Positions 36,553 through 64,000 are shown, counted from the stretch's first letter. The stretch: DNA of 64,000 bases from Spirochaetia bacterium (GCA_965208575.1 CBDBOV010000003.1:64001-128000), one strand, 5' to 3'. Numbers and translations are program-made. Notes: a model not told the origin generated them from the letters alone.

Positions 36553-36806
36553 GAGATGGCGCCGCGGCTGGCGATGATGTATCATGTGAGCCAGCCGTGG
36601 TTGAACGGATATAACGGCGAAGCGGTCTTGGGGAATTGGGAATTAACGAGCTATTTGCCCGCCTATGGATTGACCAGGAGCTGAAGGCAGAAATGGGATG
36701 CGATAGACGCGATGGCGGTTGAACTGGAAGCTCTGGGTTTCATCGTGGACCGTGAAGCTCCAGCCAGCCAGCCGGATCGATCCAACTCCAGGTATCGATC
36801 CTCGTA
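36553..36806. pseudogene. Mosaic of fragments: permease C, SBP 3' end, permease B, AAA ATPase
   Basis: EMAPRLA (matches 54413-54435), MYHVSQPWLNGYNGE (cf. 60366 onward), DAIDAMAVELEALGFIVDREA (cf. 60674 onward), minus-strand YEDRYLELDRSGWLA (cf. about 49200-49242). Confidence 0.8.
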
Positions 36807-36836
36807 CCCGGTCGAGAGTCGGTTGACCGAGCAAGG

Positions 36837-37019
36837 CTGAATGTTGAGGATCCCGGTCACATTGAATTGGAGCCGAGGTATCACGCCCTCGGCGTGTCGA
36901 GCGGGGGACGCCGACTCCACGTGACGTTTACGCTGCGGGAGCAGGACACGATGATTCGAGTCATATCCGCCCGCGACATGAGTCGCAGGGAGCGTATGCA
37001 CTATGAGCGAGAGACGTAA
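36837..37019 (+). pseudogene. BrnT toxin, 5'-truncated
   Basis: EDPGHIELEPRYHALGVSSGGRRLHVTFTLREQDTMIRVISARDMSRRER; N-terminus replaced by unrelated fragments. Confidence 0.8.
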
Positions 37020-37275
37020 GCCCGTTCCCGACCTCCGGGATGAAGCGGAAGCGCGGGCCTTCTGGGAGCGTCATGACTCCAGCGAGTACGTGGATTGGAA
37101 TGCTGCCGTACGGGCACGCTTCCCGAATCTGAAACCTTTGAACCGGTCGATTTCTCTGAGGTTGCCGCTGGATTTGCTTGAGCGCATCAAGATCGCCGCC
37201 AACAAGCGCGACGTGCCGTATCAATCGCTGATCAAGGTGTGGCTGGCCGAGAAGGTGAGCGCGGCGGAAGAGTAG
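37003..37275 (+). CDS. BrnA-family antitoxin (CopG/RHH)
   Basis: EAEARAFWERHDS.EYVDW, ISLRLP, IKIAANKRDVPYQSLIK. Confidence 0.88.
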   Translation: MSERRKPVPDLRDEAEARAFWERHDSSEYVDWNAAVRARFPNLKPLNRSISLRLPLDLLERIKIAANKRDVPYQSLIKVWLAEKVSAAEE

Positions 37276-37314
37276 CGGCTCACCCACAAGCACGGTATCC
37301 ACACGTTGGTGCGC

Positions 37315-37385
37315 CGCCGAAGTCAAGCGGCGCCTCTGGCGTGGGCGCCACCGGAGATGGCCGGCTCGACTTGGCCCTCTGATCA
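37315..37385. repeat. ~66-bp dispersed element, copy 1 (diverged)
   Basis: CGCCRAAGTCMAGCGGCG...GGAGAYGG...TCTGATCA; other copies at 47605 and 56467. Confidence 0.7.
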
Positions 37386-37790
37386 TCGTGGGTGTACAGC
37401 ATCAACATGTTCGGCGACGCCCTGCGCGACCTGCTCGACCCCCGCCTGCGCGGCAGCATCTGACCGCCGCTGTCGGCGGCGACGTGAACCACCGCCGAGC
37501 AGCCGGCACACACCTCGTCGTGGGCGCCGCCGGTGGCCTGCAGCAGGTCGGCCGCGAAGATCTCGACGCTGCCCGCGCCGAGGTCATTCATGGCCAGCAG
37601 GTACGCGGTCTTGTCCCGGCGGCTTGGCGTCGCGCCCGCTGGCGCGCACCGCGCAGCCCGCCTCGACCAGGTTCTTGACGACGTGCGATCCGATATTGCC
37701 GGAGGCGCCGGTTACGGCGACCGGCCCGTCGGTAGGTCCCGTGACAGGTGGCATGGGTGGATGGTGTGCCTTGGGTGAGCGCCGAAGTCA
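37381..37790. pseudogene. Permease C 3' end fused to an eroded epimerase 5' fragment
   Basis: YSINMFGDALRDLLDPRLRGSI* then minus-strand epimerase N-terminus; same junction as 62325-62668. Confidence 0.85.
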
Positions 37791-37925
37791 TGCGGCCTCT
37801 CTGGCAACAACCCACGAAACCCGCCGGAAACGGCGGAATTCGCATGGCCGGGATCGACGGCAGACCGCTTGCAGGAGCGCACGACGGGCGGCCAACTCCG
37901 CACGCGCCACCGCGTGGAGGCGGCG

Positions 37926-40523
37926 CTACCGCGACGGCTCAGGCGGCGGAGCTGGTCCGTAACCGTGGCACATGCGGTGGTGCGCCAGGCACGCAAGAGC
38001 CAGGTTCTCCGGCTCCGGGCCGCCCCCCTCGGCAACCGGCAGCAGGTGGTGGATCTGTAGCAGGTGGGAGGAATTGCAGCGGCGACCGGTGAGCGGATCT
38101 CGATAGCGGCAGCGCCCCCCGTCACGCAGCCAGACGTGACGCCGGACCGCCGCCGGAATGGGGCGCCGCCGCGGCGGCCGGCGCGGGCCAGGCGGAGCAT
38201 CGCTGGTGCACCGCGGCGACGCTCCCCCCGGCGTGCCGCCCGCACCACGCGCACACCGCACGCCGCTGTCCAACTGCGGCGCCGCAGCCGTGACCGGGCG
38301 GATCGGCGTGGCATCAGCGCCGTCGCTGGAGCCGTCGCCGGCCAACTGCGGCGCCGCAGCCGTGACCGGGCGGACCGGCATGGCATGAGCGCCGTCGGCG
38401 GGGCGGCCGCTGGCCAACTTCAGCGCCGCAGTCGTGGCCGACCGGATCGGCGTCGCACCAGCGTCGTCGGCGGGGTCGCCGCCGACCAACTTCGGCGCCG
38501 CAGTCGTAGCTCGCCGGATTGGCGTCGCATCAGCGCCCTCGGCGGGGCCGCCGCCGACCAACTTCGGCGCCGCACCAGCGCTGTCGGCGGGGCCGCCGCC
38601 AGCGCTCCGACCCTCCGGCGCCGCAGCAACGGCGGGCGGGGCCGAAGCAGCAGCACCTGCGCGGGCGCCAACTGACGTTGCACCGCCCGCCGGGGCGGCG
38701 GGCGCTACGCCGCGCACCCCGGCAGCGTTGCGGGACGGCGCGGCCCGCGGCTGCTCCCCGCCGGCCGCGGCCGCCGCCACGACCGAGGGTGCGCCGGTCC
38801 GCTCCCGCCGCGACGATGCTGCCGTGCCGCCCGTACGCCCCCGCCTGCCACCGCCGCGGCGCGGGTCGTGCCGCGCCACCGCCTCGCGCACCAGGCGCGC
38901 CACCAGGTCGCCCCACGACATGCGCGGGTCGACGTGCGACCACAGGTCCTTCAGGTGGCGCAGTCCCTGCTCGCACTCCTGGTCGATGCTCACCTTCAAC
39001 GTGTAGCGGTCCGGCGCCACCGCGCGCAGCGTGTCGCGTGGCGGCGCCACCTGCGGCGCGGCACTGGCCAGCAGGCCGGCGACCTGGCGCGTGGTCATGC
39101 CGGCGGCCTGCTCGATCAGCTCGCGCTGGCGCCGCGGGTGCAGCAGCGCTGCGGCCGATACCGGCCCGGCGGACCGCGGCTCCGGGTTGGAACACGGTTC
39201 CGGGTTCCGGTCACCTCGCGACGGCGCCGGTGCGAGCGCAGCGGTGAGCCGCGGCTCCGATGGGGCCACGACCGGCAACGGTACCGGTTCGGCGCAACTC
39301 GCCGGCGTTGGAGGTGGCGCAGCCGGGCCTTGGTCCGAAGCGGCCGCGGCGGCACCGGGAGGGCGCAACGGTGCCGGACAGTGCCCGGCGGCTCCGCTCG
39401 GTTCCCGCCGCGCCGGCAGCGCATCGGCATGCCGGGCGCCGCGGTGCCGCGCAGCCGCGAGGCTCGCCGCCGGCACCACCGGCGTGGCCGCCGCCTCGTT
39501 ACCCGTGAGCCCGGGCCGCGGTACACGCCCCGGCGCCGCAGGCGGTGGCGCGTGCAGCGTGGCGGCCGTCGAAGCCCGTGCAGCGCCCGAGGTGGCCGCA
39601 CTCGAGTCCAATCGGCCCACCGGCTGCGCACCCGCCGCTGCCGGGCGGGCACCGACTGCCGCCGCGTCGTCCGAAGATCGCCTGCAACGGTCGCTCACGG
39701 TATGCCGGTCTTCGCGGTCCCCGGCGGCACGGGACGACTGCGCCCCCAGGCCGTCCGCCGATGGCCTGCAGCGGTCGTTCACGATGTGCCGGTCTTCGCG
39801 GTCCCCGGCGGCACGGGACGACTGCGCCCCCAGGCCGTCCGCCGATGGCCTGCAGCGGTCGTTCACGGTGTGCCGGTCCTCGTGGCTTCCGGCGTCATCG
39901 AGCGACCTCACCTCAAGCTCGTCCGCCGATGGCCCGCAACGGTCGCTCACGGTATGCCGGGCCCCGCGGCCTCCGGCGTCACCGGGCGACCGCGCCTCCT
40001 GGTCGACGGCGGCCACGCCGGGCGGCGCCGATGCCGTCACCGCCGCGGCACCGGCCATCCCCGCTCCCGACGCTTCGGCATCCTGGTCTCCCGCTCCGCT
40101 CGGCACCGCAGGCAGCCCATGCAGATCTTCGCAGCGCTCCTCATCGACGCTCGCGCTCGCTCTCCGGCACTGGCGCTCGGCGGCGCCAAACGCGGTCTCC
40201 AACTGCGCCGCCGACGTCACACTCAACTCGCCGCTGTGCAGCATCGCCCGCACCCAGCCATGCCGCCGGCACAACCTCATGGTCTGAATACGCCGTTGCG
40301 CGGCCGCATCGGTGAACCGCAACTCCCGCACCGCGTAGTCGAACAGGCTCGAGAACCCGCGCCGCAGCGCCAGCCCGCGACGGTCGATCTCGTCGAGATG
40401 GTCCAGGATGTGCACTTCGAGGCCGCGCTGGTTGGCCGCCAGGCGCCTGGTCTGCTCGAGGAGCTGCTGATCACCGAGTGAGCTGAAGGGTCGTCTGGCG
40501 GTCCCGCCGGTCATGTTTGGCAT
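37926..40523 (-). CDS. HNH endonuclease with DUF222-like N-terminal domain and repeat-rich linkers
   Basis: N-terminal HLDEIDRRGL...GFSSLFDY..RELRF....AQRRI; C-terminal IPAAVRRHVWLRDGGRC...C...QIHH...GG...NL...C.AHH. Confidence 0.85.
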   Translation of the reverse strand: MPNMTGGTARRPFSSLGDQQLLEQTRRLAANQRGLEVHILDHLDEIDRRGLALRRGFSSLFDYAVRELRFTDAAAQRRIQTMRLCRRHGWVRAMLHSGELSVTSAAQLETAFGAAERQCRRASASVDEERCEDLHGLPAVPSGAGDQDAEASGAGMAGAAAVTASAPPGVAAVDQEARSPGDAGGRGARHTVSDRCGPSADELEVRSLDDAGSHEDRHTVNDRCRPSADGLGAQSSRAAGDREDRHIVNDRCRPSADGLGAQSSRAAGDREDRHTVSDRCRRSSDDAAAVGARPAAAGAQPVGRLDSSAATSGAARASTAATLHAPPPAAPGRVPRPGLTGNEAAATPVVPAASLAAARHRGARHADALPARREPSGAAGHCPAPLRPPGAAAAASDQGPAAPPPTPASCAEPVPLPVVAPSEPRLTAALAPAPSRGDRNPEPCSNPEPRSAGPVSAAALLHPRRQRELIEQAAGMTTRQVAGLLASAAPQVAPPRDTLRAVAPDRYTLKVSIDQECEQGLRHLKDLWSHVDPRMSWGDLVARLVREAVARHDPRRGGGRRGRTGGTAASSRRERTGAPSVVAAAAAGGEQPRAAPSRNAAGVRGVAPAAPAGGATSVGARAGAAASAPPAVAAAPEGRSAGGGPADSAGAAPKLVGGGPAEGADATPIRRATTAAPKLVGGDPADDAGATPIRSATTAALKLASGRPADGAHAMPVRPVTAAAPQLAGDGSSDGADATPIRPVTAAAPQLDSGVRCARGAGGTPGGASPRCTSDAPPGPRRPPRRRPIPAAVRRHVWLRDGGRCRYRDPLTGRRCNSSHLLQIHHLLPVAEGGGPEPENLALACLAHHRMCHGYGPAPPPEPSR
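38268..38600 (-). repeat. 72-bp coding tandem repeat (4 full units plus partial)
   Basis: CCAACT recurs at 38270, 38342, 38414, 38486, 38558. Confidence 0.85.
39680..39990 (-). repeat. 84-bp coding tandem repeat (about 3.5 units, 28 aa)
   Basis: H[TI]V[NS]DRC[RG]PSAD...EDR units; CCGGCGGCACGGGACGACTG at 39721 and 39805. Confidence 0.85.
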
Positions 40524-40929
40524 GTCTTAAATATAACACTGGTATGTAGATAGCACTTTCTTACAGGTCCTCGAACCGGTACCGGCAGCGCCCGTCGGGC
40601 GCGAATTGGCGGCTCCAGGGGCACGCGGTCGGCCACTTGACGGTCGCACACCATTGCCGGGCTTCACGGCCCGCCAGCGGCGTTTAGCGGCAGCGCAAAA
40701 GTGCGTCAACCCCTGCGCCCGATTTTCTGCAGTTATTTTGGTGCAGGTCGACAGGAACCCACCCCGCGCCGCAACAGATGGTCCGACCCGCCCGGTACGC
40801 GGGCCCTCACGACACCGGCGCCCGCGGCAGCCCGCTCGGTCCTCCATCTGCTGCCGACCTGCGCCGGACGCTCGCTCTGCTCAGTTGCCGTACGCGCGTA
40901 TCGTCCTTGCTCCCCGCTGCTGATCGGGG

Positions 40930-41145
40930 TCAAACTTCGGGAGGCTCTCCGGGCTCTCCCTCGGCTGACGTTCGCTCGGGTGGACGTTCATTCGGTTCCG
41001 GGAGTTCCGACTCGATGGCGGCGACGAGTCGCATGCAGATCCGGTGGCTGCGTCCATATCCTGCAAGTACTCGGCGGCCATCGTCATCAGCCTGCGGCCG
41101 CGCTCCCCGTTGTTCATGGCAACCGCTACGTCGCTACAGAGCGAC
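40930..41145 (-). pseudogene. Possible MNT-HEPN remnant (MNT stop plus internally deleted downstream gene)
   Basis: TCGCTACAGAGCGA at 41131-41144 equals the MNT 3' end at 54550-54563; followed by MNNGERGRRLMTMAAEYLQDMD, similar to HEPN first helices. Confidence 0.4.
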
Positions 41146-41360
41146 GTTCGGCGTGGCGGTCGATACCGTTCGGCGCTGGAAGTCGGTCCTGGTTACGAGC
41201 TTCGTTGTCACTCTGCCCTCGGTGAGCGTTGGCGGGTGGTCATGTTCGCCGGCAACCGCCGCCGCCGCCGGGAGGAGTTCCACGCACTCCCGTTGCGCGA
41301 CAACTGCTTAGGATCGAGCGGTCTCAGGGTCTCAGGGTCTCAGGACCGGCTCTCGTGTCA

Positions 41361-41647
41361 TTGACGGAGTTGACGGGTGGCCGCGCGCGTGCAACACTGC
41401 CGATGGCAGGATACGAGCACATGTGCGTAACGGCTAAGGAATCCCTCCAGCGCGGCTGCCGCTTGAAGATCGTGCAACCGGTGCGTTCTACCCCCGTTCT
41501 ACCCCCCCCCAAAAAAAGGTCGACAACACCTAACTCTCCATTCATCCGACAAATAACTAACCGTTCCGGGCAATCGGGCCGCTTTCGCCGCACCTCCGTG
41601 TACGCCCGCCCGGCGCCTTCGCCAGCACTCCGTCAAATACCATTCCC
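41361..41647 (+). promoter_or_regulatory. Module promoter and 5' half of conserved leader (copy A)
   Basis: TTGACG-17 bp-AACACT; homologous to 58123-58412. Confidence 0.65.
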
Positions 41648-41655
41648 CGGGCCAA

Positions 41656-42024
41656 TTCGTTCCGTTCGAAGAGTGGCCCGAAGAGGTCAAGAACGTCTTT
41701 AACTACGATCCGGAAGGCGCGGAGGCGCTGCTGGATGAAGCCGGATATCCTCGCGGCTCGGATGACATTCGATTCAAGACCACGTTGAAATGGATAGAAT
41801 CTTTTGATGTAGGCTATGCGGAATTGGCCATTGGATTCTGGCGCGAAATTGGTGTTGACGTACAGCTTGAGCTGATGCCCGGTGCCGAATTCACTCCTGT
41901 CACGGGTGATAGGGATTACGAAATGGTCACCAGCATAACGGCAAACCTCAGCCCGGGATATATCCACTATTCCGACGCGTTCAATTGGAACACAGCCAAC
42001 CGGGCGGCGGTCTTGGGGCGCTAG
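41656..42024 (+). pseudogene. Family 5 solute-binding protein, internal fragment
   Basis: FVPFEEWPEEVK..FNYDPEGAEALLDEAGYPRG...WREIGVDV; no N-terminus. Confidence 0.85.
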
Positions 42025-42133: not shown

Positions 42134-43096
42134 ATGAGAGCCTACATCATCAGGCGGCTATTGCTGATGATCCTTTCACTGTTTCTCTTGACCATCCTGG
42201 TATTTCTCTCGGTGCGCTTGCTCCCCGGCGATGTCATAGACGCAATACTGAGTCGGATGATGGAAATATCAACGGTAGGGACGATTGACCGGGAAGCACT
42301 TGAGCGTCAGCTGGGATTGGACGTGCCTGGCTACGTACAGTATGCCCGCTGGTTGGTGGGGATTCTCCTGCGCGGCAGCCTTGGCGAATCACTGATGGGT
42401 CGAGGAGCGGTGGAACAGCAGATAATCAACAGACTACCGGTCACCCTCGAGCTTGGCCTCCTGGCAATCGTGATCGGGCTGGTGATTGCCCTGCCGGTGG
42501 GCATCTTTTCGGCCGTTCGCCAGGATACCGCCGCCGACTACGCGGGGCGCTCCATCGCCATTGTCGGTCTGGCAACGCCCAACTTCTGGCTGGGCATTAT
42601 GGTCATGGTCTACCCGGCAATCTGGTGGGGCTGGTCGCCATCGATGGAGCTGATTCCGTTCTCTGAAGACCCGTTGGGTAATCTGGGCATGTTCCTCATT
42701 CCCAGCCTGATTCTCGGGACAGCCTCGGCAGCCGCCATCATGCGGCTGACGCGCACCATGATGCTGGAGGTGCTGCGCCAGGACTACATTCGCACCGCTT
42801 GGTCCAAGGGGCTTCGGGAGAAAGTCGTGATTATCCGGCATACCATCAAGAATGCCCTGATCCCGGTGGTGAGTCTGATCGGCCTGCAGGTGCCGATCCT
42901 GGTTGGCGGCTCCGTCATCATGGAAAACATCTTCAACCTGCCTGGAATAGGTCGTCTCGCCCTGATCGCCCTCAATGACAGAGACTTCACGATGGTCGCC
43001 GGAGTAAACTTGTTCTTCGCAGCCACGGTTATGGGGGCCAATCTTGTCACCGACCTGATCTATGCGTTCTTGGATCCCAGAGTTCGTTACCACTAG
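42134..43096 (+). CDS. Opp/Dpp-type ABC permease B
   Basis: MRAYIIRR, LPGD, TPNFWL, QDYIRTAWSKGL, LDPRVR. Confidence 0.93.
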   Translation: MRAYIIRRLLLMILSLFLLTILVFLSVRLLPGDVIDAILSRMMEISTVGTIDREALERQLGLDVPGYVQYARWLVGILLRGSLGESLMGRGAVEQQIINRLPVTLELGLLAIVIGLVIALPVGIFSAVRQDTAADYAGRSIAIVGLATPNFWLGIMVMVYPAIWWGWSPSMELIPFSEDPLGNLGMFLIPSLILGTASAAAIMRLTRTMMLEVLRQDYIRTAWSKGLREKVVIIRHTIKNALIPVVSLIGLQVPILVGGSVIMENIFNLPGIGRLALIALNDRDFTMVAGVNLFFAATVMGANLVTDLIYAFLDPRVRYH

Positions 43097-43111: not shown

Positions 43112-44014
43112 ATGAGGGAGCACAGGAGACGTGCCGGGATTGCTGGTTTCCTGCTCAGGTTGGTCAAGGAAAAGCCACTGGGCACTGTTTGCGGGATTAT
43201 CGTACTTATATTGATTCTCGTGGCTATCTTCGCGGATGCTCTGGCTCCCTATGAACACTATCAAATGCACCTGAAAGACCGGATGCAGGGCTCCTCAGCC
43301 CGGTATCTGCTCGGTACCGACCACCTGGGGCGCGACTTCCTGAGCCGAATCATCTATGGGGCCCGTATTTCACTGACGGTCGGTCTGGCCGCGACCGCTC
43401 TCAATGTCGTAGTCGCTGTACTGGTAGGCGGCGTTTCAGGATTCTTTGGCGGTAAAGCAGACCTCGTGGTGCAGAGGTTTGTCGATACCTGGATGTCGTT
43501 CCCGAGTCTGATCCTGTTGTTGACCGTTATGTCCGTATTGGGGAAGGGTTTAGTCCAGATAATAGTCGTGCTTGGAGTAGCAGGAGGCATCGGCAGCTCA
43601 AGAGTAGTCAGAGGCGCCGTTATCGCAGTAAAAGAGAATACCTATTTTCAGGCGGCGGAGTCGATCGGCTCTTCCAAGTGGAGAGCCTATATCCGACATG
43701 TGCTGCCCAATATCGTGGCTCCCGTAATCATCATATTCAGCATCAACATTGGGGGCGTGATCATGTCCGAGTCTGCTCTGAGTTTTCTTGGATTTGGATT
43801 GCCACCCGGTATTCCGAGCTGGGGAGGGATGCTCAGCCGGGAAGGGCGTCAATACATGGAGGAAGGGCCATGGCTGGCGCTCTGGCCAGGTCTCTATCTT
43901 ACGATTCTCGTCTACAGTCTGAACATGTTCGGCGATGCGGTAAGGGACCTGCTCGACCCGAGGCTGAGGGGTGGCGCGGGGCGCTATGGTGCCCATACCG
44001 GCAAGTCGGTCTAG
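43112..44014 (+). CDS. Opp/Dpp-type ABC permease C
   Basis: LGTDHLGRD, RHVLPN, LSFLGFG, PSWGGML, GDAVRDLLDPR. Confidence 0.93.
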   Translation: MREHRRRAGIAGFLLRLVKEKPLGTVCGIIVLILILVAIFADALAPYEHYQMHLKDRMQGSSARYLLGTDHLGRDFLSRIIYGARISLTVGLAATALNVVVAVLVGGVSGFFGGKADLVVQRFVDTWMSFPSLILLLTVMSVLGKGLVQIIVVLGVAGGIGSSRVVRGAVIAVKENTYFQAAESIGSSKWRAYIRHVLPNIVAPVIIIFSINIGGVIMSESALSFLGFGLPPGIPSWGGMLSREGRQYMEEGPWLALWPGLYLTILVYSLNMFGDAVRDLLDPRLRGGAGRYGAHTGKSV

Positions 44015-44110
44015 AAGAGCACGCGCACAACGGCATGGCAGGTGCGGATCTCAAGTGATGTGCGCCGATGCGGTTGCAAGCTTGGACCGAGCCGCCCGCT
44101 GCGGCCAGGG

Positions 44111-45241
44111 TCACCGGGGCGGCCGCGTCCGAGGCCGCCGCTGGCCCGAGACGGCGCGGGCCGGGCTGCGGTAGACCCCGAGCGCGCGCCCACCGCCGCC
44201 CTTGAGGCGCGGGTCGAGCAGGTCGCGTACGGCGTCGCCGAACATGTTGACGCCGTACACCACCACCGCCAGACAGATGCCGGGAAACAGCGCCAGCTCC
44301 GGCTTGCGCTCCATGTAGCGGCGGCCGTCGAAGCTGAGCATGCCGCCCCAGCTCGGCACCTCCAGCGGCAGGCCGAAGCCGAGGAAGCTGAGCGCCGCCT
44401 CGTCCAGGATGATGTAGCCGATGTTGATGGAGTAGATGACGATCACCGGCGCCACGATGTTGGGCAGCACGTGGCGCAGCACGGTGCGCAGCCTGCGGTT
44501 GCCGATCGCGGCCGCCGCCGCGATGTAGTCGTTCTCCTTGATGCCGATCACGGCGCTGCGCAGGACGCGCGAGTTGTGGATGCCGTACAGGACGCCCAGC
44601 ACCACGATGATCTGCAACGTGCCGCGGCCGACGATCGACATTACCGTGAGCAGCACCAGCAGCCCCGGAAACGCCATCCAGCCGTCCACGAAGCGCTGCA
44701 CCACGAGGTCGTAGCGGCCGCCGAGGTAGCCGGACGGCACCCCGATCGCCGCCGCCACCACGATGGTCACCGTGGTCGCGGCCAGGCCCACCACCAGCGA
44801 GATGCGGGCGCCGTGAATCAGCCGGGTCAGGATGTCGCGGCCCGCCCCGTCGGCACCCAGCAGGTGCCTGGCGGACGGCGGCGCCAGCCGGTCCATCACG
44901 ATCATCTCGTCCACCTCGTAGCGGGTCAGCACGTCGGCGAAGATCCCGCACACCAGCAGCAGCAGGATGATGATCGCCCCCACCAGGCCGAGCGGCTTCT
45001 CGCGCACCAGGCGCACGAAGAAGTCGGCCACCGGGCCGCGCGCACCGGCGCCGCGCGGGCCACGATCCGGTGAACCCGTGTCCGGTGAGTGTACGCGGCG
45101 CGTGACGCGGCGGCGCGGTGTGGCTTCCGGTCCACCGGATGGGTGGGGGGAGGCCCGGCTGTCTTGGCCGCCCACGTCGCGGGAGTTGCCGGCTCGGGCG
45201 CGGTTGCCGTTGCCGGCGCCGCCGTCGGCAAGATCCGCCAT
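44111..45241 (-). CDS. Opp/Dpp-type ABC permease C (inverted module)
   Basis: LGADGAGRD, RHVLPN, PSWGGML, GDAVRDLLDPR. Confidence 0.9.
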   Translation of the reverse strand: MADLADGGAGNGNRARAGNSRDVGGQDSRASPHPSGGPEATPRRRVTRRVHSPDTGSPDRGPRGAGARGPVADFFVRLVREKPLGLVGAIIILLLLVCGIFADVLTRYEVDEMIVMDRLAPPSARHLLGADGAGRDILTRLIHGARISLVVGLAATTVTIVVAAAIGVPSGYLGGRYDLVVQRFVDGWMAFPGLLVLLTVMSIVGRGTLQIIVVLGVLYGIHNSRVLRSAVIGIKENDYIAAAAAIGNRRLRTVLRHVLPNIVAPVIVIYSINIGYIILDEAALSFLGFGLPLEVPSWGGMLSFDGRRYMERKPELALFPGICLAVVVYGVNMFGDAVRDLLDPRLKGGGGRALGVYRSPARAVSGQRRPRTRPPR

Positions 45242-46209: not shown

Positions 46210-46391
46210 CGGTCAGCGGGCGCCGGACCGCACCGGACGCGCTGGGGCCCGTCCGGTGCCGGGCGCGCTGAGGGCCGTCCGGTGGTGCCCTCCGAGGCGG
46301 CGCAAGAAGCGGCCGCCAGGGGAAGAGGCCCCCGGCGGCCGCGAGGTTCTCAAGTCAGATGCGAATCGCAGCCGTGTTTCGCCGCGGGCTG

Positions 46392-47345: not shown

Positions 47346-47411
47346 TATGCCCCACCCTCCCGCGCCGTCAAGCAAGCCGAGCTGGCCGGCTGTCCGGCCA
47401 CCACCTTCAGG

Positions 47412-47670: not shown

Positions 47671-47825
47671 ATTCGAGACCCGCGCAGCGCCGCCTTCGGG
47701 AAGCTGGCGCTCACGGACCCTGTCATTCACAGGTGGCCGCACATCAACCGGCTGCCATGGCATGCACGTAGGTGCCGGTTGACGTTGCGCGGGGGACCGC
47801 GTATACATGATGTGGAGTTGTATAC

Positions 47826-55074: not shown

Positions 55075-55185
55075 GTCGCAATCAGAATACCACGAACCAG
55101 GCGGCGATGGGGATCCGGTACCTGCAACTACCGCGGGCCGGCAGCAACGTCGCCTTCAAGGGCACTGGCTTTCAGCGCGGCCCGG

Positions 55186-55291
55186 TTGAACTTGGGAGAC
55201 GGGGCAGGTACTGTCGGGCGCGGACGCGCATACGCGAGCGGAAGGCGGCGGCCGAGTCGCCGCTTGGCTGCCGGGCTGACCTGATGAGGCC
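55186..55291 (+). pseudogene. Scar of a second sterol desaturase copy (promoter joined to last codons)
   Basis: Matches 33780-33814 then 34796-34865, joined at CGGGCG. Confidence 0.85.
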
Positions 55292-55322
55292 CTGAAGAAG
55301 CGGCTCGGGCTCGACGGAAAGG

Positions 55323-56441: not shown

Positions 56442-56466
56442 GGGTGGATGGTGTGCCTTGGGTGAG

Positions 56467-56532
56467 CGCCAAAGTCAAGCGGCGTCTCCGGCGCGGGCGA
56501 CACAGGAGATGGCGCCGTGGCCAATCTGATCA
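56467..56532. repeat. ~66-bp dispersed element, copy 3
   Basis: Collinear with 47605-47670; directly upstream of the epimerase. Confidence 0.75.
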
Positions 56533-56621
56533 ATATGATCGATGGTGGATGTCGAATCCAAATCACACTCTCTTTCGACGTACCATAATATCGATACTCT
56601 ATAGAGGGAGTGAACGTAGAT

Positions 56622-57950
56622 ATGGATATTCCGTACACTGAACGTCACGGTGAGCGTGTTCTCGAACGGTTCATTGTGGACCGCGTGCCGCACAAGCCGG
56701 TGCTCCTCGTGGAGGGCGCTCGCCAAGTGGGGAAGACGACTCTCGTGGAGCATGTCCTGGCGGGCTCGGCCAAGCCAACCGTCCGGATCAACCTGGAGCG
56801 TGACTCGCTGGATCGCATGGCGTTCGACGAATGCCGAGACTTCGCCGCGTTCCAGGACCTGCTGCTCGACCGCCACCGGTTTCGCCCGAACGCCGGCCAG
56901 GTCCTGTTCATCGACGAAGCGCAGGAGAGCCGCAGGCTCGGCGGGTTCGTGCGCTTCATGAAGGAAGAGTGGCCGCGCGCCACGGTAATTCTCTCGGGTT
57001 CGACGCTGAGGCGCCTGTTTCGCCCGCACACTCGCTACCCGGTGGGCCGCGTTCGCCGCCTGGTGCTGGGCCCGTTTTCCTTCTCCGAGTTCCTGCGGGC
57101 GGTGGGGCAGAGCCACCTGGCCGACCAGGTCCTCGGTGACGACACGCAGATCAGCGACCAGCGGCACGACCATCTGCTTGCCCGGTTCGACCAGTTTATC
57201 GCAGTGGGCGGGCTGCCCGCGGTAGTGCAGGCATACGTGGCGGGCGAGGACCACGCCCTGGTGCGCCGCCAGATCGCGGCCGACTACGAGCAGGACTTCA
57301 TACGGCTGTTCGGTGAGGAGAGCGTCGACATCGCCACCGCGTGCCTGCGCAGCGTCGCCAATTTCGTGGGCGGCGTGTCCAAGAACACCTCGGTGGTGCC
57401 GGCACCGGGTAGCCGCGTGAACGCCAGGATCAACGAGGTGTTCGCGCGCCTGGAGAGCTGGCACCTGGTCCTGCGCTCCGATCAACGGGGGTCGAGTACA
57501 TACGCCAGTCATGCCTACCTGCCCAAGCGCTACCTGTTCGACACCGGTGTGCTGCGCGAGCTGCGCGAGTCGGCCGTGCCGGCCATCAGCGCGGTGCACA
57601 CGATGGCGGCGGCCGCGCGCACTCCGCTCGGCGCAATCATCGAGAACCAGGCCGCAATCGAGCTGGCGCGCGGCGGGCGGCCGCTGGCCGGCTGGAAACG
57701 CTCTCCGGCGGGGTCGGAGATCGACTTCATCGGCAAGACCGGTACGGCGGCGGTCCCGGTCGAGTGCAAGGCGAGCCTGTCCGTGAACCTCCGGCACATG
57801 CGCGGCCTGATTGCCTATCTGCGCGCTCATGGCCAGCAGCGCGGGTACATCGCGAGCCTGGCGCCCTACGGGGAAACCGGCGTGGACGGCGCAAAGATCG
57901 TGAACCTGCCCGCCTATCTCCTGGAGCGGCTTGCGCGGGGAGTGCCGTGA
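56622..57950 (+). CDS. AAA_14 ATPase with DUF4143 / PD-(D/E)XK-like C-terminus
   Basis: GARQVGKT, FIDEAQ, LSGS, GGLP, KRYLFDTG, EIDFI...VECK. Confidence 0.87.
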   Translation: MDIPYTERHGERVLERFIVDRVPHKPVLLVEGARQVGKTTLVEHVLAGSAKPTVRINLERDSLDRMAFDECRDFAAFQDLLLDRHRFRPNAGQVLFIDEAQESRRLGGFVRFMKEEWPRATVILSGSTLRRLFRPHTRYPVGRVRRLVLGPFSFSEFLRAVGQSHLADQVLGDDTQISDQRHDHLLARFDQFIAVGGLPAVVQAYVAGEDHALVRRQIAADYEQDFIRLFGEESVDIATACLRSVANFVGGVSKNTSVVPAPGSRVNARINEVFARLESWHLVLRSDQRGSSTYASHAYLPKRYLFDTGVLRELRESAVPAISAVHTMAAAARTPLGAIIENQAAIELARGGRPLAGWKRSPAGSEIDFIGKTGTAAVPVECKASLSVNLRHMRGLIAYLRAHGQQRGYIASLAPYGETGVDGAKIVNLPAYLLERLARGVP

Positions 57951-57990
57951 GGGTTCTACCGCACCACAGCGCACTTTCGGGCGGCGGGCC

Positions 57991-58034
57991 GGGTCGGCGT
58001 GGCATCAGCGCCGTCGGCGGAGTTGCCGCCGACC
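57991..58034 (-). pseudogene. Remnant of one 72-bp repeat unit of the HNH gene
   Basis: TCGGCGTGGCATCAGCGCCGTCG is shared with 38303-38325. Confidence 0.6.
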
Positions 58035-58122
58035 GAAGAGCAGCTTCCCGGTGGGCCGCGCACCCGCCTGGTGCCGGGTCCGTTTTCCTTGCTGGCCTCG
58101 GTGCTCTCTGGCGCGAACCTCA

Positions 58123-58685
58123 TTGACGGCATTGACGGAAGTTGACGGGTAGTCGCGCGCGTGCAACACTGTCGATGGTGGGATTACGAGCACATGGGCC
58201 CAACGGCGAGAGATCCCTTGCAGCGCGGTTGCCGGTTGAAGATCACGCGACCGGTGCGCTTCCCCCGCCACGGGCGACAGCACCTGACTATCCATTCATC
58301 CGAGAAATAACTACCAACCGCCGCGGCCAACCGGGCGGCGTTCGCCGCACCTGCGTGTACGCCCGTCCGGCCCTGCGACAGCACTCCGTCCAATTCCAGG
58401 TCATTCCGTCAACTACCGGGATCGCCGCCACCCTTGCGCGTGCCTCGCGGCCGCGCGCTCGGCGTCGAGTACCGGAATTCCGCGCAACGGGGAGGTGCAA
58501 GCTGATACTCAAAGAACTGCACCATGCGCGCGGCCCGCGAGAGTTCACGACGCTCATGCCGCGCGCGTGACCACCTGAGGTTGCCCTCTCGGCTTGGCCG
58601 CCTGCGTTGCGGGCGCGAGAGTGGGCAGGGAACGGCAACTCGCACCGGAAGCACTCTCACAAACTCACATATGGGAGAGATCAGT
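58123..58685 (+). promoter_or_regulatory. Complete module promoter plus ~510-nt leader (copy B)
   Basis: TTGACG(58142)-17 bp-AACACT; 5' half matches copy A, 3' half matches copy C. Confidence 0.65.
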
Positions 58686-60494
58686 ATGAATCTTCCAAGA
58701 ATTGTACACGCCTTCGTGGTTGTGCTCGTGTTCGCCCTGACCGCGACCGGCGTCTGGGCCAGCGGCGAGAGCGACCAGCCGGCCGCGGCGGCCGAGAAGG
58801 AAATGGTGCTCGACCCCCGAACCGGGGAGATGGTGGAGGCGCCACGATATGGCGGGACATTGACCTATGCCACCGTCATGCCCGAGACGGGGGCCGCCGA
58901 CGAGGCGTTGAACGGTCGGTCCGGTCTCTTGCTCGTCCAAGGCGTGCTCGAGAAACCATCGATAGCGAACTGGGCTCTGCCTGCAGACGAATGGGGCAGG
59001 AGGATGGTCAGCTCCGACACCCCGCTCTGGAGTCTCACGGGATCGCTGGCGGAGAGCTGGGAAACACCCGACGACACGACCATCGTTCTCAACATCCGCC
59101 AGGGCGTTCACTGGCATGACAAGCCGCCGATGAACGGCCGGGAGCTGACTGCCGATGACATCGCATACAACTATCACCGCTATCTCGGTCTGGGCAGCGG
59201 CTTCACGGAGGCTGCCCCGGGAGCGGGCCCGCTGGGCGCAGTGGGAGTCGAATCGGTAACGGCCACCGACCAATGGACGGTCGTGATCGAGCTGGAGCGG
59301 CCCAACCCTGTCGCGCTGTTTACGCTCCTCCAGTGGTACACGTTCGACATCCATCCCCCGGAGGTGATCGAGGAACACGGCAACATCAACGACTGGAGGA
59401 ACCTGGTCGGCACGGGGCCGTTCATGCTGACCGACTATGTCGAAGGATCGTCCGTCACCTGGCTCAAGAATCCCAACTACTGGGGCTTCGACGAAAAGTA
59501 CCCGGACAACCGGTTGCCCTACATTGACGAGCTGGTAGCGCTGATCATGCGAGAAGAGGCCACCCGCACGGCGGCACTGCGCTCCGGCAAGCTCGACTAC
59601 AGGGGGTATGCCGGGGAAGCCCAATTGAGGACCATAGACTTGGCGGAAAGTCTCGCCAAGAGCAACCCCGAAATAACGCAGTGGCCGTACTATGTGCGGT
59701 CGGAGTTCGCTTTCGGGTTCAACACCAGCAACCCGCCGTTCGACGACATCAGGGTGCGCAAGGCACTGCAGATGGCGCTGGACATGGAGACGATCAACGA
59801 AACCTACCTCGGAGGGAGGGGAGATATCACGCCTCATGGGAAGGTCGGAACAGCTCAGAAGGGGCTCTTCGTCCCGTTCGAGGAGTGGCCGGACGAGGTG
59901 AAGAAGGGCCACAGGTACGATCCCGAAGGTGCCGAGAAGCTCCTCGATGAGGCCGGCTACCCGCGCGGCGCCGACGGCACGAGATTCAAGACCTCCGTTG
60001 TCCTTCACGCAAATACTGTTCTCAGCTACTATGAATTGGCGGCTGCATACTGGAGCGAGCTTGGCATTGATCTGGAGATTCAGGTGCTGTCTACAGGGGC
60101 CGAGTTCGGCGCGGTCCTACGTGAAGGCAGATTCGAAGCTCTTATAGGCACGATTTCGGGCGCCAACTACTTCAATGAGAATCATGCAACGGGATGGCGT
60201 TCAGGCACTTCAGGTAACGCCGCGGTCGTCAGCGATCCTCACATGGACGCCTTGATTGATGCCCTGAAGGCGAGCACGAGTCTCGACGAGTACCACGGGT
60301 GGTTCCGCGAGATAGATATGTACGCGGTGGAGCAACATTGGAATATCTGGGGTCCCGTTTCCCCGATGTATCATGTCAGCCAGCCGTGGTTGAAGGGGTA
60401 TAACGGCGAAGCGACCATGGGGAATTGGCAAATGAGCGACCTGTACGCCCGTGTCTGGATTGACCAGGAGCTGAGGGCAGAACTGGTAAATTAG
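58686..60494 (+). CDS. Family 5 (Opp/Dpp-type) solute-binding protein
   Basis: Signal peptide, APRYGG, LAESWETPD, RQGVHWH, GTGPF, NPNYWG, PPFDDIRVR. Confidence 0.93.
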   Translation: MNLPRIVHAFVVVLVFALTATGVWASGESDQPAAAAEKEMVLDPRTGEMVEAPRYGGTLTYATVMPETGAADEALNGRSGLLLVQGVLEKPSIANWALPADEWGRRMVSSDTPLWSLTGSLAESWETPDDTTIVLNIRQGVHWHDKPPMNGRELTADDIAYNYHRYLGLGSGFTEAAPGAGPLGAVGVESVTATDQWTVVIELERPNPVALFTLLQWYTFDIHPPEVIEEHGNINDWRNLVGTGPFMLTDYVEGSSVTWLKNPNYWGFDEKYPDNRLPYIDELVALIMREEATRTAALRSGKLDYRGYAGEAQLRTIDLAESLAKSNPEITQWPYYVRSEFAFGFNTSNPPFDDIRVRKALQMALDMETINETYLGGRGDITPHGKVGTAQKGLFVPFEEWPDEVKKGHRYDPEGAEKLLDEAGYPRGADGTRFKTSVVLHANTVLSYYELAAAYWSELGIDLEIQVLSTGAEFGAVLREGRFEALIGTISGANYFNENHATGWRSGTSGNAAVVSDPHMDALIDALKASTSLDEYHGWFREIDMYAVEQHWNIWGPVSPMYHVSQPWLKGYNGEATMGNWQMSDLYARVWIDQELRAELVN

Positions 60495-60577: not shown

Positions 60578-61537
60578 ATGAGAGCCTACATCATCCGCCG
60601 GCTCCTGCTGATGATTCCGACCCTGTTCATAGTGACCATCGTGACGTTTCTCTCGGTGCGCTTCATTCCCGGCGATGCAATAGACGCAATGACGGTTCAA
60701 CTGGAAATGATGGGGTTTGTGCCGGACCGTGAAGCTCTCGTGAAACAGCTTGGATTGGACGTGCCGATCCACGTGCAGTATGGACGCTGGATCGGAGGTA
60801 TCCTGTTGCGCGGCACGCTTGGAAATTCACTCTGGGGGACCGATGTTTCGATAGAGCAGAGAATATCGGCCAGATTGCCGGTGACCATCGAGCTGGGTGT
60901 TCTGGCAATCCTGATCGGGCTGGTGATCGCCGTGCCGGTCGGCATCTACTCGGCGGTGCGCCGTAATTCGGCCGCCGACTACGTGGGGCGCGCCGCCGCC
61001 GTCATCGGCCTGGCAACGCCCAACTTCTGGCTGGCCCTGATGGTGATTATTTACCCGGCACTCTGGTGGGGCTGGTCGCCGCCGATGCGGCTGGTCTCTT
61101 TCACCCAAGACCCGCTCGGCAATCTCGCGGTGTTCATCGTTCCGAGCCTGATTCTGGGCACGGCTCTTGCTGCCGGCACCATGCGGCTGACGCGTACCAT
61201 GATGCTGGAGGTGCTGAGGCAGGACTATATCAGGACGGCGTGGTCCAAGGGCCTCAAGGAGCGATTCGTCATCATGAGACACGCCATCAAGAACGCCCTG
61301 ATCCCGGTGGTTACCCTGATCGGCCTGCAGTTGCCTATCCTGGTTGGTGGCTCCGTTATCATGGAGAACATCTTCAACCTGCCCGGATTGGGTCGCCTCA
61401 TGGTGTTGGCGCTCGAAGAGAGAGACTACCCGGTGGTGTCCGGGGTAAACCTGTTTTTCGCAACCGCGGTGGTGTGCTTCAATTTGATGATAGACCTGAT
61501 TTATCCTCTGTTCGACCCCCGGGTCCGCTATGCGTGA
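60578..61537 (+). CDS. Opp/Dpp-type ABC permease B
   Basis: MRAYIIRR, TPNFWL, QDYIRTAWSKGL. Confidence 0.93.
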   Translation: MRAYIIRRLLLMIPTLFIVTIVTFLSVRFIPGDAIDAMTVQLEMMGFVPDREALVKQLGLDVPIHVQYGRWIGGILLRGTLGNSLWGTDVSIEQRISARLPVTIELGVLAILIGLVIAVPVGIYSAVRRNSAADYVGRAAAVIGLATPNFWLALMVIIYPALWWGWSPPMRLVSFTQDPLGNLAVFIVPSLILGTALAAGTMRLTRTMMLEVLRQDYIRTAWSKGLKERFVIMRHAIKNALIPVVTLIGLQLPILVGGSVIMENIFNLPGLGRLMVLALEERDYPVVSGVNLFFATAVVCFNLMIDLIYPLFDPRVRYA

Positions 61538-62402
61538 AGCGACCAGGAGGCGTACCGCGCTGGCTGATTTCTTTGCCAGGATGGTCAGGGAGCAGCCTCT
61601 CGGTGTCGGCTGCGGTATTGTCGTATTGCTATTGATTCTCGTGGCTATATTTGCCGATGTTCTGGCCCCCTATGGCTTCCTTGAAGTGCACCTCAGGGAC
61701 AGACTGCAGGGCTCATCGGCCCAGTATCCGCTGGGCACCGACCAGTTGGGTCGGGACTTGTTGAGCCGGGTCATCTACGGGGCCCGGCTGTCGATAGCGG
61801 TCGGTCTGGCGGCCACCAGTATCAATGTCGTGGTGGCGCTCCTGATCGGCGGCACGTCCGGATTCCTCGGCGGCAAGTTCGACCTGGCCGTGCAGAGATT
61901 CGTCGATGCCTGGATGGCGTTCCCGGGATTGTTGATCCTGTTGACGATAATGTCGCTGGTCGGGCGCGGCGTAACGCAGATAATAGTCGTCCTGGGCATA
62001 GCCGGCGGCATCGGCGGCTCGCGAGTGGTGCGAGGCGCGGTCGTCGGCATAAAGGAGAATCTCTACTTTCAGGCCGCGGCGGCGATTGGCGCCTCGAAAT
62101 GGCGAGCGTTCGTGCGCCATGTTCTGCCCAATATCATGCCTGTCGCAATCATCATATTCAGCATCAACATCGGCGGGGTGATGATATCCGAGGCGTCTCT
62201 GAGCTTCCTCGGGTTTGGACTGCCTCCCACCGTTCCAAGCTGGGGAGGCTTGCTCAGCCGGGAAGGACGCGAGTACATGGAGCGGGCGCCGTGGCTGGCC
62301 GCCTGGCCAGGGCTCTGCCTGACCATCACCGTGTTCAGTCTGAACATGTTCGGCGACGCGCTGCGCGACCTGCTCGACCCCCGCCTGCGCGGCAGCGTCT
62401 GA
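61530..62402 (+). CDS. Opp/Dpp-type ABC permease C
   Basis: LGTDQLGRD, RHVLPN, GDALRDLLDPRLRGSV. Confidence 0.93.
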   Translation: MREATRRRTALADFFARMVREQPLGVGCGIVVLLLILVAIFADVLAPYGFLEVHLRDRLQGSSAQYPLGTDQLGRDLLSRVIYGARLSIAVGLAATSINVVVALLIGGTSGFLGGKFDLAVQRFVDAWMAFPGLLILLTIMSLVGRGVTQIIVVLGIAGGIGGSRVVRGAVVGIKENLYFQAAAAIGASKWRAFVRHVLPNIMPVAIIIFSINIGGVMISEASLSFLGFGLPPTVPSWGGLLSREGREYMERAPWLAAWPGLCLTITVFSLNMFGDALRDLLDPRLRGSV

Positions 62403-62410
62403 CCGCCGCT

Positions 62411-62668
62411 GTCGGCGGCGAGGTGAAACACCGCCGAGCAGCCGGCACACACCTCGTCGTAGGCGCCGCCGGTGGCCTGCAGCAGGTCGGACGCGAAGAT
62501 CTCGACGCTGCCCGCGCCGAGGTCGTTCATGGCCAGCAGGTACGCGGTCTTGTCCCGGCGGCTTGGCGTCGCGCCTGCTGGCGCGCACCGCGCAGCCCGC
62601 CTCGACCAGGTTCTTGACGACGTGCGATCCGATGTAGCCGGAGGCGCCGGTAACGGGGACCGGCCCGC
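62411..62668 (-). pseudogene. Epimerase 5' fragment (frameshifted)
   Basis: VTGASGYIGSHVVKNLVEAG...; homologous to about 56160-56415. Confidence 0.85.
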
Positions 62669-62709
62669 GGGCGGCCAACTCCGCACGCGGCCACGGCGTG
62701 GAGGCGGCG

Positions 62710-64000
62710 CTACCGCGACGGCTCAGGCGGCGGAGCTGGTCCGTAACCGTGGCACATGCGGTGGTGCGCCAGGCACGCAAGAGCCAGGTTCTCCGCCTCC
62801 GGGCCGCCCCCTTCGGCGACCGGCAGCAGGTGGTGGATCTGTAGCAAGTGGGAGGAATTGCAGCGGCGACCGGTGAGCGGATCCCGATAGCGGCAGCGCC
62901 CCCCGTCGCGCAGCCAGACGAGACGCCGGACCGCCGCTGGAATGGTGCGCCGCGGCGACGGCCGGCGCGGGCCGAGCGGAGCATCGCGGGTGCACCGCGG
63001 CGACGCTCCCCCCGGCGTGCCGCCCGCACCACGCGCACACCGCACGCCGCTGGCCAACTTCGGCGCCGTAGCCGTAGCCCGCCGGATCCGCGTCGCATCT
63101 GCGCCGCCGGCGGAGCCGTCGCCGGCCAACTTCGGCGCCGCAGCCGTGACCGACCGGATCGGCGTGGCACCAGCGTCGTCGGCGGGGTCGCCACTGGCCA
63201 ACTTCGGCGCCGCAGCCGTGACCGACCGGATCGGCGTGGCACCAGCGTCGTCGGCGGGGTCGCCACTGGCCAACTTCGGCGCCGCAGCCGTGACCGACCG
63301 GATCGGCGTGGCACCAGCGTCGTCGGCGGGGTCGCCACTGGCCAACTTCGGCGCCGCAGCCGTGACCGACCGGATCGGCGTGGCACCAGCGTCGTCGGCG
63401 GGGTCGCCACTGGCCAACTTCGGCGCCGCAGTCGTAGCCGACCGGATCGGCGTGGCACCAGCGTCGTCGGCGGGGTCGCCACTGGCCAACTTCGGCGCCG
63501 TAGCCGTAGCCGGCCGGATCCGCGTCGCACCAGCGCTGTCGGCGGGGCCGCCGCCGGCGCTCCGACCCTCCGGCGCCGCAGCAACGGCGGGCGGGGCCGA
63601 AGCAGCGGCACCTGCGCGGGTGCCAACTGAACTTGCACCGCCCGCAGGGGCGGCGGGCGCAACGCCGCGCACCCCGGCAGCGTTGCGGGTCGTCGCGGCC
63701 CGCGGCTGCTCCCCGCCGGCCGCGGCCGCCGCCACGACCGAGGGTGTGCCGGTCCGCTCCCGCCGCGACGATGCTGCCGTGCCGCCCGTACGCCCCCGCC
63801 TGTCACCGCCGCCGCGCGGGTCGTGCCGCGCCACCGCCTCGCGCACCAGGCGCGCCACCAGGTCCCCCCACGACATGCGCGGGTCGACGTGCGACAGCAG
63901 GTTCTTCAGGTGGCGCAGTCCCTGCTCGCACTCCTGGTCGATGCTCACCTTCAAGGTGAAGCGGTCCGGCGCCACCGCGCGCAGGGTGTCGCGCGGCGGC
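62710..64000 (-). CDS. HNH endonuclease, second copy (5' end beyond window)
   Basis: Close paralogue of 37926-39045 with the same HNH motif. Confidence 0.85.
   Translation of the reverse strand, partial: PPRDTLRAVAPDRFTLKVSIDQECEQGLRHLKNLLSHVDPRMSWGDLVARLVREAVARHDPRGGGDRRGRTGGTAASSRRERTGTPSVVAAAAAGGEQPRAATTRNAAGVRGVAPAAPAGGASSVGTRAGAAASAPPAVAAAPEGRSAGGGPADSAGATRIRPATATAPKLASGDPADDAGATPIRSATTAAPKLASGDPADDAGATPIRSVTAAAPKLASGDPADDAGATPIRSVTAAAPKLASGDPADDAGATPIRSVTAAAPKLASGDPADDAGATPIRSVTAAAPKLAGDGSAGGADATRIRRATATAPKLASGVRCARGAGGTPGGASPRCTRDAPLGPRRPSPRRTIPAAVRRLVWLRDGGRCRYRDPLTGRRCNSSHLLQIHHLLPVAEGGGPEAENLALACLAHHRMCHGYGPAPPPEPSR
63052..63555 (-). repeat. 72-bp coding tandem repeat (about 7 units)
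   Basis: GGCCAACTTCGGCGCCG at 63052, 63124, 63196, 63268, 63340, 63412, 63484. Confidence 0.95.

Follow-up and report, generated by a model that had tools for sequence, protein, structure and literature searches.

A partly decayed cluster of binding-protein and permease modules, and a probable transposon-borne HNH gene at its borders, in a Spirochaetia genome

A stretch of 64,000 nucleotides (nt) from a Spirochaetia bacterium (GCA_965208575.1, CBDBOV010000003.1:64001-128000) carries several modules of importer genes, each made of a substrate-binding protein (SBP) and two permeases, together with a long gene ending in an HNH nuclease motif. We refer to this whole stretch as the window; it is G000:C3:64001-128000 in the source genome, G000, and coordinates given without a contig label are window positions. 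The original prediction for this DNA was that the locus amplifies, diversifies and prunes its binding proteins, possibly driven by cutting of the HNH nuclease at module borders and stabilised by toxin-antitoxin genes. Here we describe the gene content of the window, the elements that carry the HNH gene and the genome-wide family to which the modules belong, and weigh what has shaped the locus.

The source genome spans 6.5 Mb at 67% GC in six contigs and is a metagenome-type assembly with an estimated contamination of 5.75%. Sponge metagenome runs hold DNA near-identical to the window, a Spirochaetae bin of 5.5 Mb and 67.4% GC is tabulated in a sponge study (PMC5649159), and the host of the array is probably a sponge-associated spirochaete. 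Comparisons were made with ten related genomes of the same genus (G001-G010), G006 being the nearest relative for the region, and with public runs (X1, X4, X5 and X6) examined as short Logan contigs. The window was mapped with Pfam on 42 candidate open reading frames (ORFs) and with blastx against the paralogues of the source genome itself.

Modules and duplicated junctions in the window

Each of the four modules, M1 to M4, holds an SBP_bac_5 gene and two BPD_transp_1 permeases by Pfam. M4 (58.5-62.4 kb, plus strand) is the only fully intact one. Its leader (58130-58398, plus strand), recognised by similarity to that of M1, precedes SBP4 (58524-60494, plus strand; SBP_bac_5 E 2.4e-66, covering positions 3-364 of the 368 in profile PF00496), which from its sequence likely starts at an internal methionine ahead of a signal-peptide-like hydrophobic stretch. 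The permease genes permB4 (60578-61537) and permC4 (61530-62402) follow on the same strand and are matched by both Pfam and NCBIfam. In NCBIfam the permeases best match Opp2B and Opp4C, but neither they nor SBP4 reach any equivalog cut-off, and they consequently receive no substrate-level name.

M1 (about 41.6-44.0 kb, plus strand) begins with a leader-like sequence (41359-41642, plus strand) that is 77.5% identical to the M4 leader. Its SBP1 is a remnant spanning residues ~428-546 of ~634 (41647-42000, plus strand; blastx to paralogues), followed by a full-length OppB-type permB1 (42134-43096, plus strand; BPD_transp_1 and BPD_transp_1_N) and a full-length OppC-type permC1 (43112-44014, plus strand; BPD_transp_1 and OppC_N). 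M2 (44.1-47.4 kb) lies on the minus strand, with full-length permC2 (44111-45241) and permB2 (45241-46209) and only the C-terminal half of SBP2 (residues ~300-618, 46395-47384; Pfam and blastx). M3 (50.7-54.5 kb, plus strand) has an SBP3 (50697-52560) that is complete save for one extra base near 51877, seen by Pfam and blastx as a +1 frame change between 50697-52004 and 51823-52560; permB3 (52644-53603) and permC3 (53603-54535, start approximate) are full length. As predicted, then, further modules lie at 50.6-54.5 kb and, inverted, at 44.1-47.3 kb, and SBP4 alone is whole while the permeases of all four modules have their full length, every permease carrying BPD_transp_1 with BPD_transp_1_N or OppC_N. 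SBP1, SBP2 and SBP3 are truncated or frameshifted.

A fifth module, M0, is almost erased. What is left of it is an SBP tail and a permC tail that enclose a BrnT/BrnA toxin-antitoxin pair. The SBP 3' relic (36463-36698, plus strand) is broken over two frames and aligns by blastx with residues ~594-660 of the genome's own SBP paralogues; within it, 36576-36696 is 84% identical to the SBP 3' end at 60365-60486. The permC relic (37370-37463, plus strand), read directly from the sequence, keeps the last ~30 codons and the stop, belongs to repeat family D18 and inverted pair I9, and has after it the GC hairpin that also follows permC4. The 50-nt permC-tail stretch that defines D18 occurs five times in the region, two of the copies being orphan tails such as 50190-50239 (plus strand), identical to 62325-62374 at 50/50 nt. 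More matches limited to the permC tail were found elsewhere in the genome by tblastn.

Pieces larger than these tails are also duplicated. A 3.6-kb block holding a permC tail, an epimerase fragment and the HNH gene is present twice at 91-95% identity, 37392-37728 corresponding to 62331-62667 (95%) and 37885-40980 to 62668-65950 (91%), the second copy lacking 156 nt; the duplication of this junction had been predicted correctly. The stretch 34863-35310 equals 55907-56354 at 99.3% identity, and five pieces of 48.3-55.1 kb are repeated at 65.9-69.8 kb with 91-95% identity. An intact gene of the NAD-dependent epimerase/dehydratase family (55323-56441, minus strand; Pfam) is the source of three fragments: 34863-35310; a 5' fragment with 51 nt of upstream sequence (37472-37805, minus strand) that is 94% identical to 56160-56492 and covers epimerase residues 1-33 and 48-94 by tblastn; and 62411-62667 (minus strand), recognised by sequence identity and tblastn as the duplicate of 37472-37728.

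These duplications do not amount to a repeating unit. The pieces of the predicted epimerase-HNH-module unit do exist, but M1 and M4 share only 74% nt identity and so are old paralogues rather than copies of one recent unit, and in the second instance an AAA_14/DUF4143 ATPase gene (56610-57950, plus strand; Pfam) stands between epimerase and module. Nor does the unit start again at 62.4 kb, as had been proposed: a second HNH copy is followed by about 6 kb of debris and the next module is met only at 72.3 kb. A foreign origin of the modules judged by GC content was considered and rejected, the GC content at third codon positions of the modules (0.62-0.97) being part of the wide background range of the genome (5th-90th percentile 0.62-0.91).

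HNH elements and an ISKra4-type insertion sequence

The HNH gene belongs to a dispersed family. Its N-terminal, middle and C-terminal segments match 14 close loci in the genome, which we call A-type (12 full and 2 partial, 72-100% amino acid (aa) identity), and 25 more distant loci made up of B-type copies and fragments. A-type copy 1 occupies 37822-40856 on the minus strand, its ends having been set by blastn against 11 other copies and by end alignment, and contains an intact ORF of 865 aa (37926-40523, minus strand) with an HNH domain by Pfam. Its left terminus is degenerate and its right terminus (~80 nt) is missing; neither was found by the motif scan. Copy 2 (62668-64000, minus strand, running to ~65950 past the window) has lost its left end and keeps an intact ORF of 928 aa, whose HNH domain was detected by Pfam in the part within the window (62713-63999, minus strand). 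Other copies end at about 40856, whereas the flank at 40857-40980 is common to the two window copies only, as part of a match between 38261-40980 and 63189-65950 at 91.5%. Since the window copies have both flanks in common and are truncated alike at the right end, they go back to one event.

Within the HNH ORF lie tandem repeats of 72 nt (24 aa) and 84 nt (28 aa), at 38189-38704 and 39574-39993; they are also present in the copy at G000:C3:337755-341256, and their number varies between copies. One such 72-nt unit survives as a lone relic at 57983-58034 (85% identity over 52 nt, E 1e-12, repeat family D8). An HNH remnant near 57991 had been foreseen in the original prediction and is real, but it derives from the repeats in the 3' part of the gene and therefore does not occupy the equivalent position that was claimed for it.

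The proteins of these elements measure 520-1016 aa. The HNH motif (PF01844, E 4.8e-6) falls on the last 85 residues, and likewise in the B-type proteins. An AlphaFold2 model from a 30-row alignment has a mean predicted local distance difference test score (pLDDT) of 51, with 70-83 in the helical N-terminal and middle parts; a fold assignment was rejected, the best match in the PDB by VIA-align (a Cdt1 domain, Z 5.8) being within noise for helical models. Database relatives number 426 at E <= 1e-5, the name seen among them being 'hypothetical protein [Spirochaetaceae bacterium]'. The protein resembles the DUF222-HNH genes of REP13E12, a category of repetitive element named for Mycobacterium tuberculosis in PMC10589994, in being multi-copy and dispersed and in having an N-terminal part that is helical and an HNH motif at the C-terminus, and DUF222 is present in 23% of the members of a feature-based neighbour cluster. 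It differs in carrying long inserts of low complexity, in which units of 24 and 28 residues repeat in tandem, and in giving no match to DUF222 (PF02720), either at E <= 1 for residues 1-135 and 456-560 or at E <= 0.01 for the whole protein.

The ends are shared among the copies while each copy has flanks of its own, and the ends point to transposition. Flanking direct repeats of at least 7/8 or 9/9 nt accompany eight of the nine elements for which both termini were found, against at most 5/8 in 72 mismatched-pair controls. The site of the element at G000:C6:160173-163231 is empty and uninterrupted in G007 and G001; for the element at G000:C2:502246-505615, the flanks lie 10 kb apart in G006 and are single in other relatives. 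A genome scan found the same termini on an insertion sequence (IS) of 1,438 bp, present in 10 copies of 100% identity with 8-9-bp target duplications, whose 434-aa ORF hits NF033572, the transposase model for the ISKra4 family, with positions 18-422 of its 422 covered (E 1.6e-58). With B-type elements the IS shares 24/25 and 22/23 terminal nt. By Pfam, no transposase domain is present in the A- or B-type HNH proteins or in seven other ORFs inside the element. Because the termini are those of the IS and no transposase lies between them, the HNH elements would most simply be non-autonomous, cargo-carrying relatives of it. The HNH gene is thus most likely, as judged from sequence, the cargo of a transposable element moved in trans by an ISKra4-type transposase.

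The IS itself looks recently active in the source genome. Internal-deletion derivatives of 570 bp, each a single copy with its own flanks, lie at G000:C4:140189-140758 and C5:154972-155541. One full IS copy (G000:C3:50315-51752) is found 12 kb before the window, and two others stand back to back at G000:C4:511218-514101. The ISKra4 group consists of Mutator-related DDE insertion sequences (p-MULT 4), some members of which hold extra genes, and its transposases are reported to insert just upstream of sigma-A promoters (PMC3942029). The co-resident IS agrees with the group in its inverted termini, its 8-9-bp duplications and its often promoter-like neighbours: -35/-10 pairs were seen 9-18 nt outside an end at 3/11 sites of the IS or its miniature derivatives and at 2/10 HNH elements, compared with 46 of 20,000 random sites. 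Promoter targeting would explain why an HNH element lies between the promoters of the epimerase gene and the module, which diverge, and why G003 has an HNH paralogue in the corresponding place, described below. Unlike an ISKra4 IS, the HNH elements bear matching termini but no transposase, HNH being their only recognisable gene, and the passages on the ISKra4 group in PMC3942029 name no HNH cargo.

Importer modules across the genome

The window modules have the SBP_bac_5 protein and the OppB- and OppC-type permeases of an Opp/Dpp importer (SBP family 5, peptide/nickel type), but no OppD/OppF ATPases are encoded in the module region; no ABC_tran match lies in that region, the nearest in the window being at 13.9-24.1 kb. 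The same holds across the genome. With the M4 proteins as tblastn queries and identity of at least 35%, near-full matches number 110 for the SBP, 122 for permB and 111 for permC, and the 168 blocks of SBP or permease matches make up 7.2% of the genome. An ATPase of the ATP-binding cassette (ABC) type within 3 kb was found for none of the 103 blocks that hold full permB and permC (for example G000:C6:936841-940575), in a neighbour scan that detected 112 ABC ATPase domains where hmmsearch found 128. Complete blocks number 82; in a further 21 the permeases lack a full SBP, and 15 consist of an SBP alone.

ATPases of the fitting kind are few. The oligo_HPY domain gives only 28 matches at 14 loci, of which 13 adjoin distant permeases (25-35% identity). 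The remaining pair, at G000:C2:725627-726888, is the only OppD/F-type pair without a family-5 SBP or permease match within 14 kb, and it is a candidate, proposed from its genomic position, for a shared ATPase serving the modules that lack their own. Sharing of this kind has precedents. MsiK in Streptomyces and MsmX in Bacillus are 'multitask' ATPases, each a single ATPase shared by sugar importers of the CUT1 type, while importers of the Opp/Dpp family need two ATPase subunits. The present module operons are similar in that they would depend on an ATPase encoded elsewhere, and dissimilar in belonging to the Opp/Dpp family and in having the stand-alone OppD/F pair as no more than a candidate partner.

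Among spirochaetes, the Opp system of Borrelia burgdorferi has, according to PMC5736914, five binding proteins, two permease heterodimers and one ATPase heterodimer. It has in common with the modules described here the SBP_bac_5 and OppB/OppC families, binding-protein paralogues that outnumber the ATPases, and a spirochaete host; measured against what that source reports, the present case differs in that the permease pair is multiplied along with the SBP (103 pairs), no ATPase is adjacent and the OppD/F loci number only 14.

The expansion is lineage-specific and strongest in five genomes of the genus. First-look counts of SBP_bac_5 candidates, which are not gene counts, stand at 169-226 in G000, G001, G003, G005 and G006, 54-90 in G007-G010, and 10 and 37 in G002 and G004 (assemblies 76-81% complete); the sister genus has 24-25 and other families of the order have 4-25. 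Literature searches, whose limited coverage does not prove absence, returned no description of such an expansion in sponge spirochaetes, nor of an IS carrying HNH only.

Turnover of the locus and competing explanations

Comparison with relatives shows a locus in motion. The M1 permease orthologues in G001, G003, G005 and G007 have 91-95% nt identity and each stands beside a full-length SBP, so that the SBP1 deletion is private to the G000 lineage; synteny at 85% nt identity or more does not extend beyond M1 in the 80-kb regions compared from G001, G005 and G007. G006 is 96-97% identical in the region (97% nt for SBP4) and holds the shared pieces in another order. There, permC4 is followed by unrelated sequence, with neither epimerase fragment nor HNH gene. 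The distance from the end of the epimerase match to the M4 match is 514 nt in G006 and 1,993 nt in G000, and neither the AAA_14 gene nor the leader of M4 in G000 (56527-58518) has a match in the compared 50-kb region of G006, which makes the AAA_14/DUF4143 gene a recent gain in G000 or a loss in G006. Change is visible among samples too. The extra base of SBP3 is missing in contigs of X1 (39.7 of 97.4 depth), X5 and X6, while X4 has no contigs without it (0 of 142.2 depth); the frameshift thus varies between strains and does not mark a fixed pseudogene.

Other genes lie between the modules. The BrnT toxin gene enclosed by M0 (36756-37019, plus strand; PF04365, E 1.7e-11, profile positions 26-77 of 77) is probably 5'-truncated, its stop-to-stop frame having no listed start codon, whereas the BrnA/CopG-type antitoxin gene (36982-37275, plus strand; PF12441, E 9.7e-34, positions 1-79 of 79) is complete. 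An MNT-like nucleotidyltransferase gene (54553-55155, minus strand; NTP_transf_2 by Pfam) consists of two contiguous same-frame ORFs separated by an in-frame stop at 54805-54807. Genes in this state lend no support to the stabilising role that had been given to them. Outside the modules lies an AAA_16/AAA_22 ATPase gene (48891-50105, minus strand; Pfam), of which an 87% identical copy is found elsewhere in the G006 order. Two long ORFs with high GC at third positions, 47727-48869 (minus strand, 380 aa) and 33793-34863 (plus strand, 356 aa), match nothing in Pfam or NCBIfam, and pieces of them recur in G006 and G003 at other positions. Another ORF (35332-36417, minus strand, 362 aa) has no family match above noise and contains a GC-rich repeat of 9/12-nt periodicity at 35436-35633.

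We read the region, with a probability of about 0.8, as a recombination-scrambled and partly decayed cluster of paralogues in which the HNH gene is a hitchhiking transposon cargo and not a driver. Paralogous modules would undergo ectopic homologous recombination and deletion among themselves, which would rearrange the locus without any dedicated machinery, with breakpoints often in the very conserved 3' end of permC. The HNH elements would be non-autonomous and mobilised in trans by the ISKra4-type transposase; one A-type copy would have inserted 5' of the epimerase gene, beside the divergent leader of a module, lost its usable ends, and then been copied passively with its flanks to two module borders. 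The toxin-antitoxin genes would be decayed passengers. Part of the original prediction survives in this account: the locus does duplicate, rearrange and prune, as witnessed by the duplications, the relic tails, the three broken SBPs and the different order in G006, and passive duplication and decay, offered there as a fallback, fits what we see. The drive by HNH does not survive, and stabilisation by toxin-antitoxin genes finds no support. The further statement that no described system has such a layout is true only trivially, the layout being a by-product of more than 100 paralogous modules and a promoter-seeking transposon.

That cutting of module borders by the nuclease is what amplifies, diversifies and prunes the SBP modules, with toxin-antitoxin genes holding the array together, is an idea with an evident basis in the window, where HNH genes flank two module borders, and in G003, where another HNH paralogue lies between the epimerase gene and the SBP1 orthologue; all 12 full A-type ORFs are intact besides. 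We nevertheless consider it very unlikely. Distances from HNH loci to the nearest module gene, compared with random sites by binomial p, are at the random level: 1/14 A-type loci lie within 1 kb (random 16%, p 0.91) and 2/14 within 2 kb (random 19%, p 0.77), and 5/25 B-type loci lie within 1 kb (random 16%, p 0.37). Counted by blocks, two of the 14 A-type loci fall within 1 kb (17% random), and both are the window copies, which represent a single duplicated event. Random placement is what the original prediction had itself named as speaking against it. None of the five D18 permC tails directly abuts an HNH terminus, the toxin-antitoxin genes appear damaged, the HNH gene sits inside an element with terminal inverted repeats, target site duplications and ISKra4-type termini, and M4 of G006 has no adjoining HNH gene, yet that region has been rearranged too. 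A different role for the protein would be that of transposase of its own element, working by a cut-and-paste mechanism of a new, HNH-based kind. Between the inverted termini of A and B types its gene is the only one recognised, the frames are those just described as intact, and no DDE domain was detected in the protein; against this, a co-resident ISKra4-type IS with 10 identical copies has the same termini and the same duplication length, and the two 570-bp deletion derivatives of that IS suggest a transposase acting in trans. Such a mechanism is, in our judgement, highly improbable.

Repeats of this sort could also arise as collapsed or mis-joined metagenome copies, an invitation extended by a six-contig metagenome-type assembly with an estimated contamination of 5.75%, by more than 100 paralogues and by public contigs that do not bridge the long junctions. 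However, the duplicated copies are 91-99% alike and not 100%, which argues against an artefact; these differences of 1-9% come with private indels (the 156-nt deletion, the repeat numbers), X1 contigs match six stretches with 0 differences (44001-44554, 44531-45556, 45819-47556, 55004-55684, 56441-57928 and 57899-58508), and G006 independently has the epimerase gene beside M4, all of which leaves an artefact extremely improbable. A more serious contender concerns the modules themselves. The more than 100 ATPase-less modules could be a selected repertoire of fast-turnover receptors for peptides from the host or seawater, their turnover functional instead of neutral decay. The expansion is lineage-specific, SBPs have 36-54% aa identity to SBP4 compared with ~50-79% for permeases, permease pairs stay intact beside broken SBPs, and the SBP3 frameshift is polymorphic. 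Faster divergence of SBPs than of permeases is, however, usual for ABC importers, and the tally of 82 complete, 21 permease-only and 15 SBP-only blocks shows loss without strong bias; we regard an adaptive repertoire as possible but doubtful.

Several observations count against our preferred account of a scrambled cluster with a hitchhiking cargo gene. We infer recombination at the permC tails from relics and not from dated events, and mobilisation in trans likewise from sequence. The ISKra4 match, at 198.8 bits, is below the NCBI cut-off of 205, the IS shares only 13/14 terminal nt with A-type elements, and the promoter criterion was chosen after the flanks had been inspected. The 12 intact A-type ORFs (804-1016 aa) have remained so despite 8-27% nt divergence, so the HNH protein does something under selection, and it may have a role in DNA breakage. 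B-type copies trend weakly towards modules at 5 kb (10/25 versus 25% of random sites, p 0.065). G003 holds its different HNH paralogue (48-53% aa) in the same epimerase-SBP1 intergenic region, with epimerase, B-type HNH element and full-length SBP1 orthologue in that order at G003:C5 ~6511573-6518650. This insertion is independent of that in G000 and in the same divergent promoter region, and a module-linked role of HNH would likewise predict it. Finally, the long-range order of the locus is that of the assembly alone, public contigs being too short to bridge the duplicated junctions.

Both the cluster and the IS derivative are of known kinds, and the proposed nuclease-driven shuffling system is not supported. 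There being no such system here, effort in following it up is saved. An HNH-domain gene inside ISKra4-type ends hints at a transposon cargo and not at an autonomous mobile nuclease. More speculatively, and at rather low odds, the more than 100 ATPase-less Opp-type modules might draw on a few ATPase pairs elsewhere, perhaps the stand-alone OppD/F, and be renewed by ectopic recombination as fast-evolving nutrient receptors, with HNH-carrying ISKra4-type elements landing in module promoters as a second layer. The expansion without own ATPases is the most interesting thing here, and it belongs to the genome as a whole, not to the locus: some 100 permease pairs without an ATPase of their own constitute a large expansion of a single family, and raise the question of how, and why, so many importers are powered.

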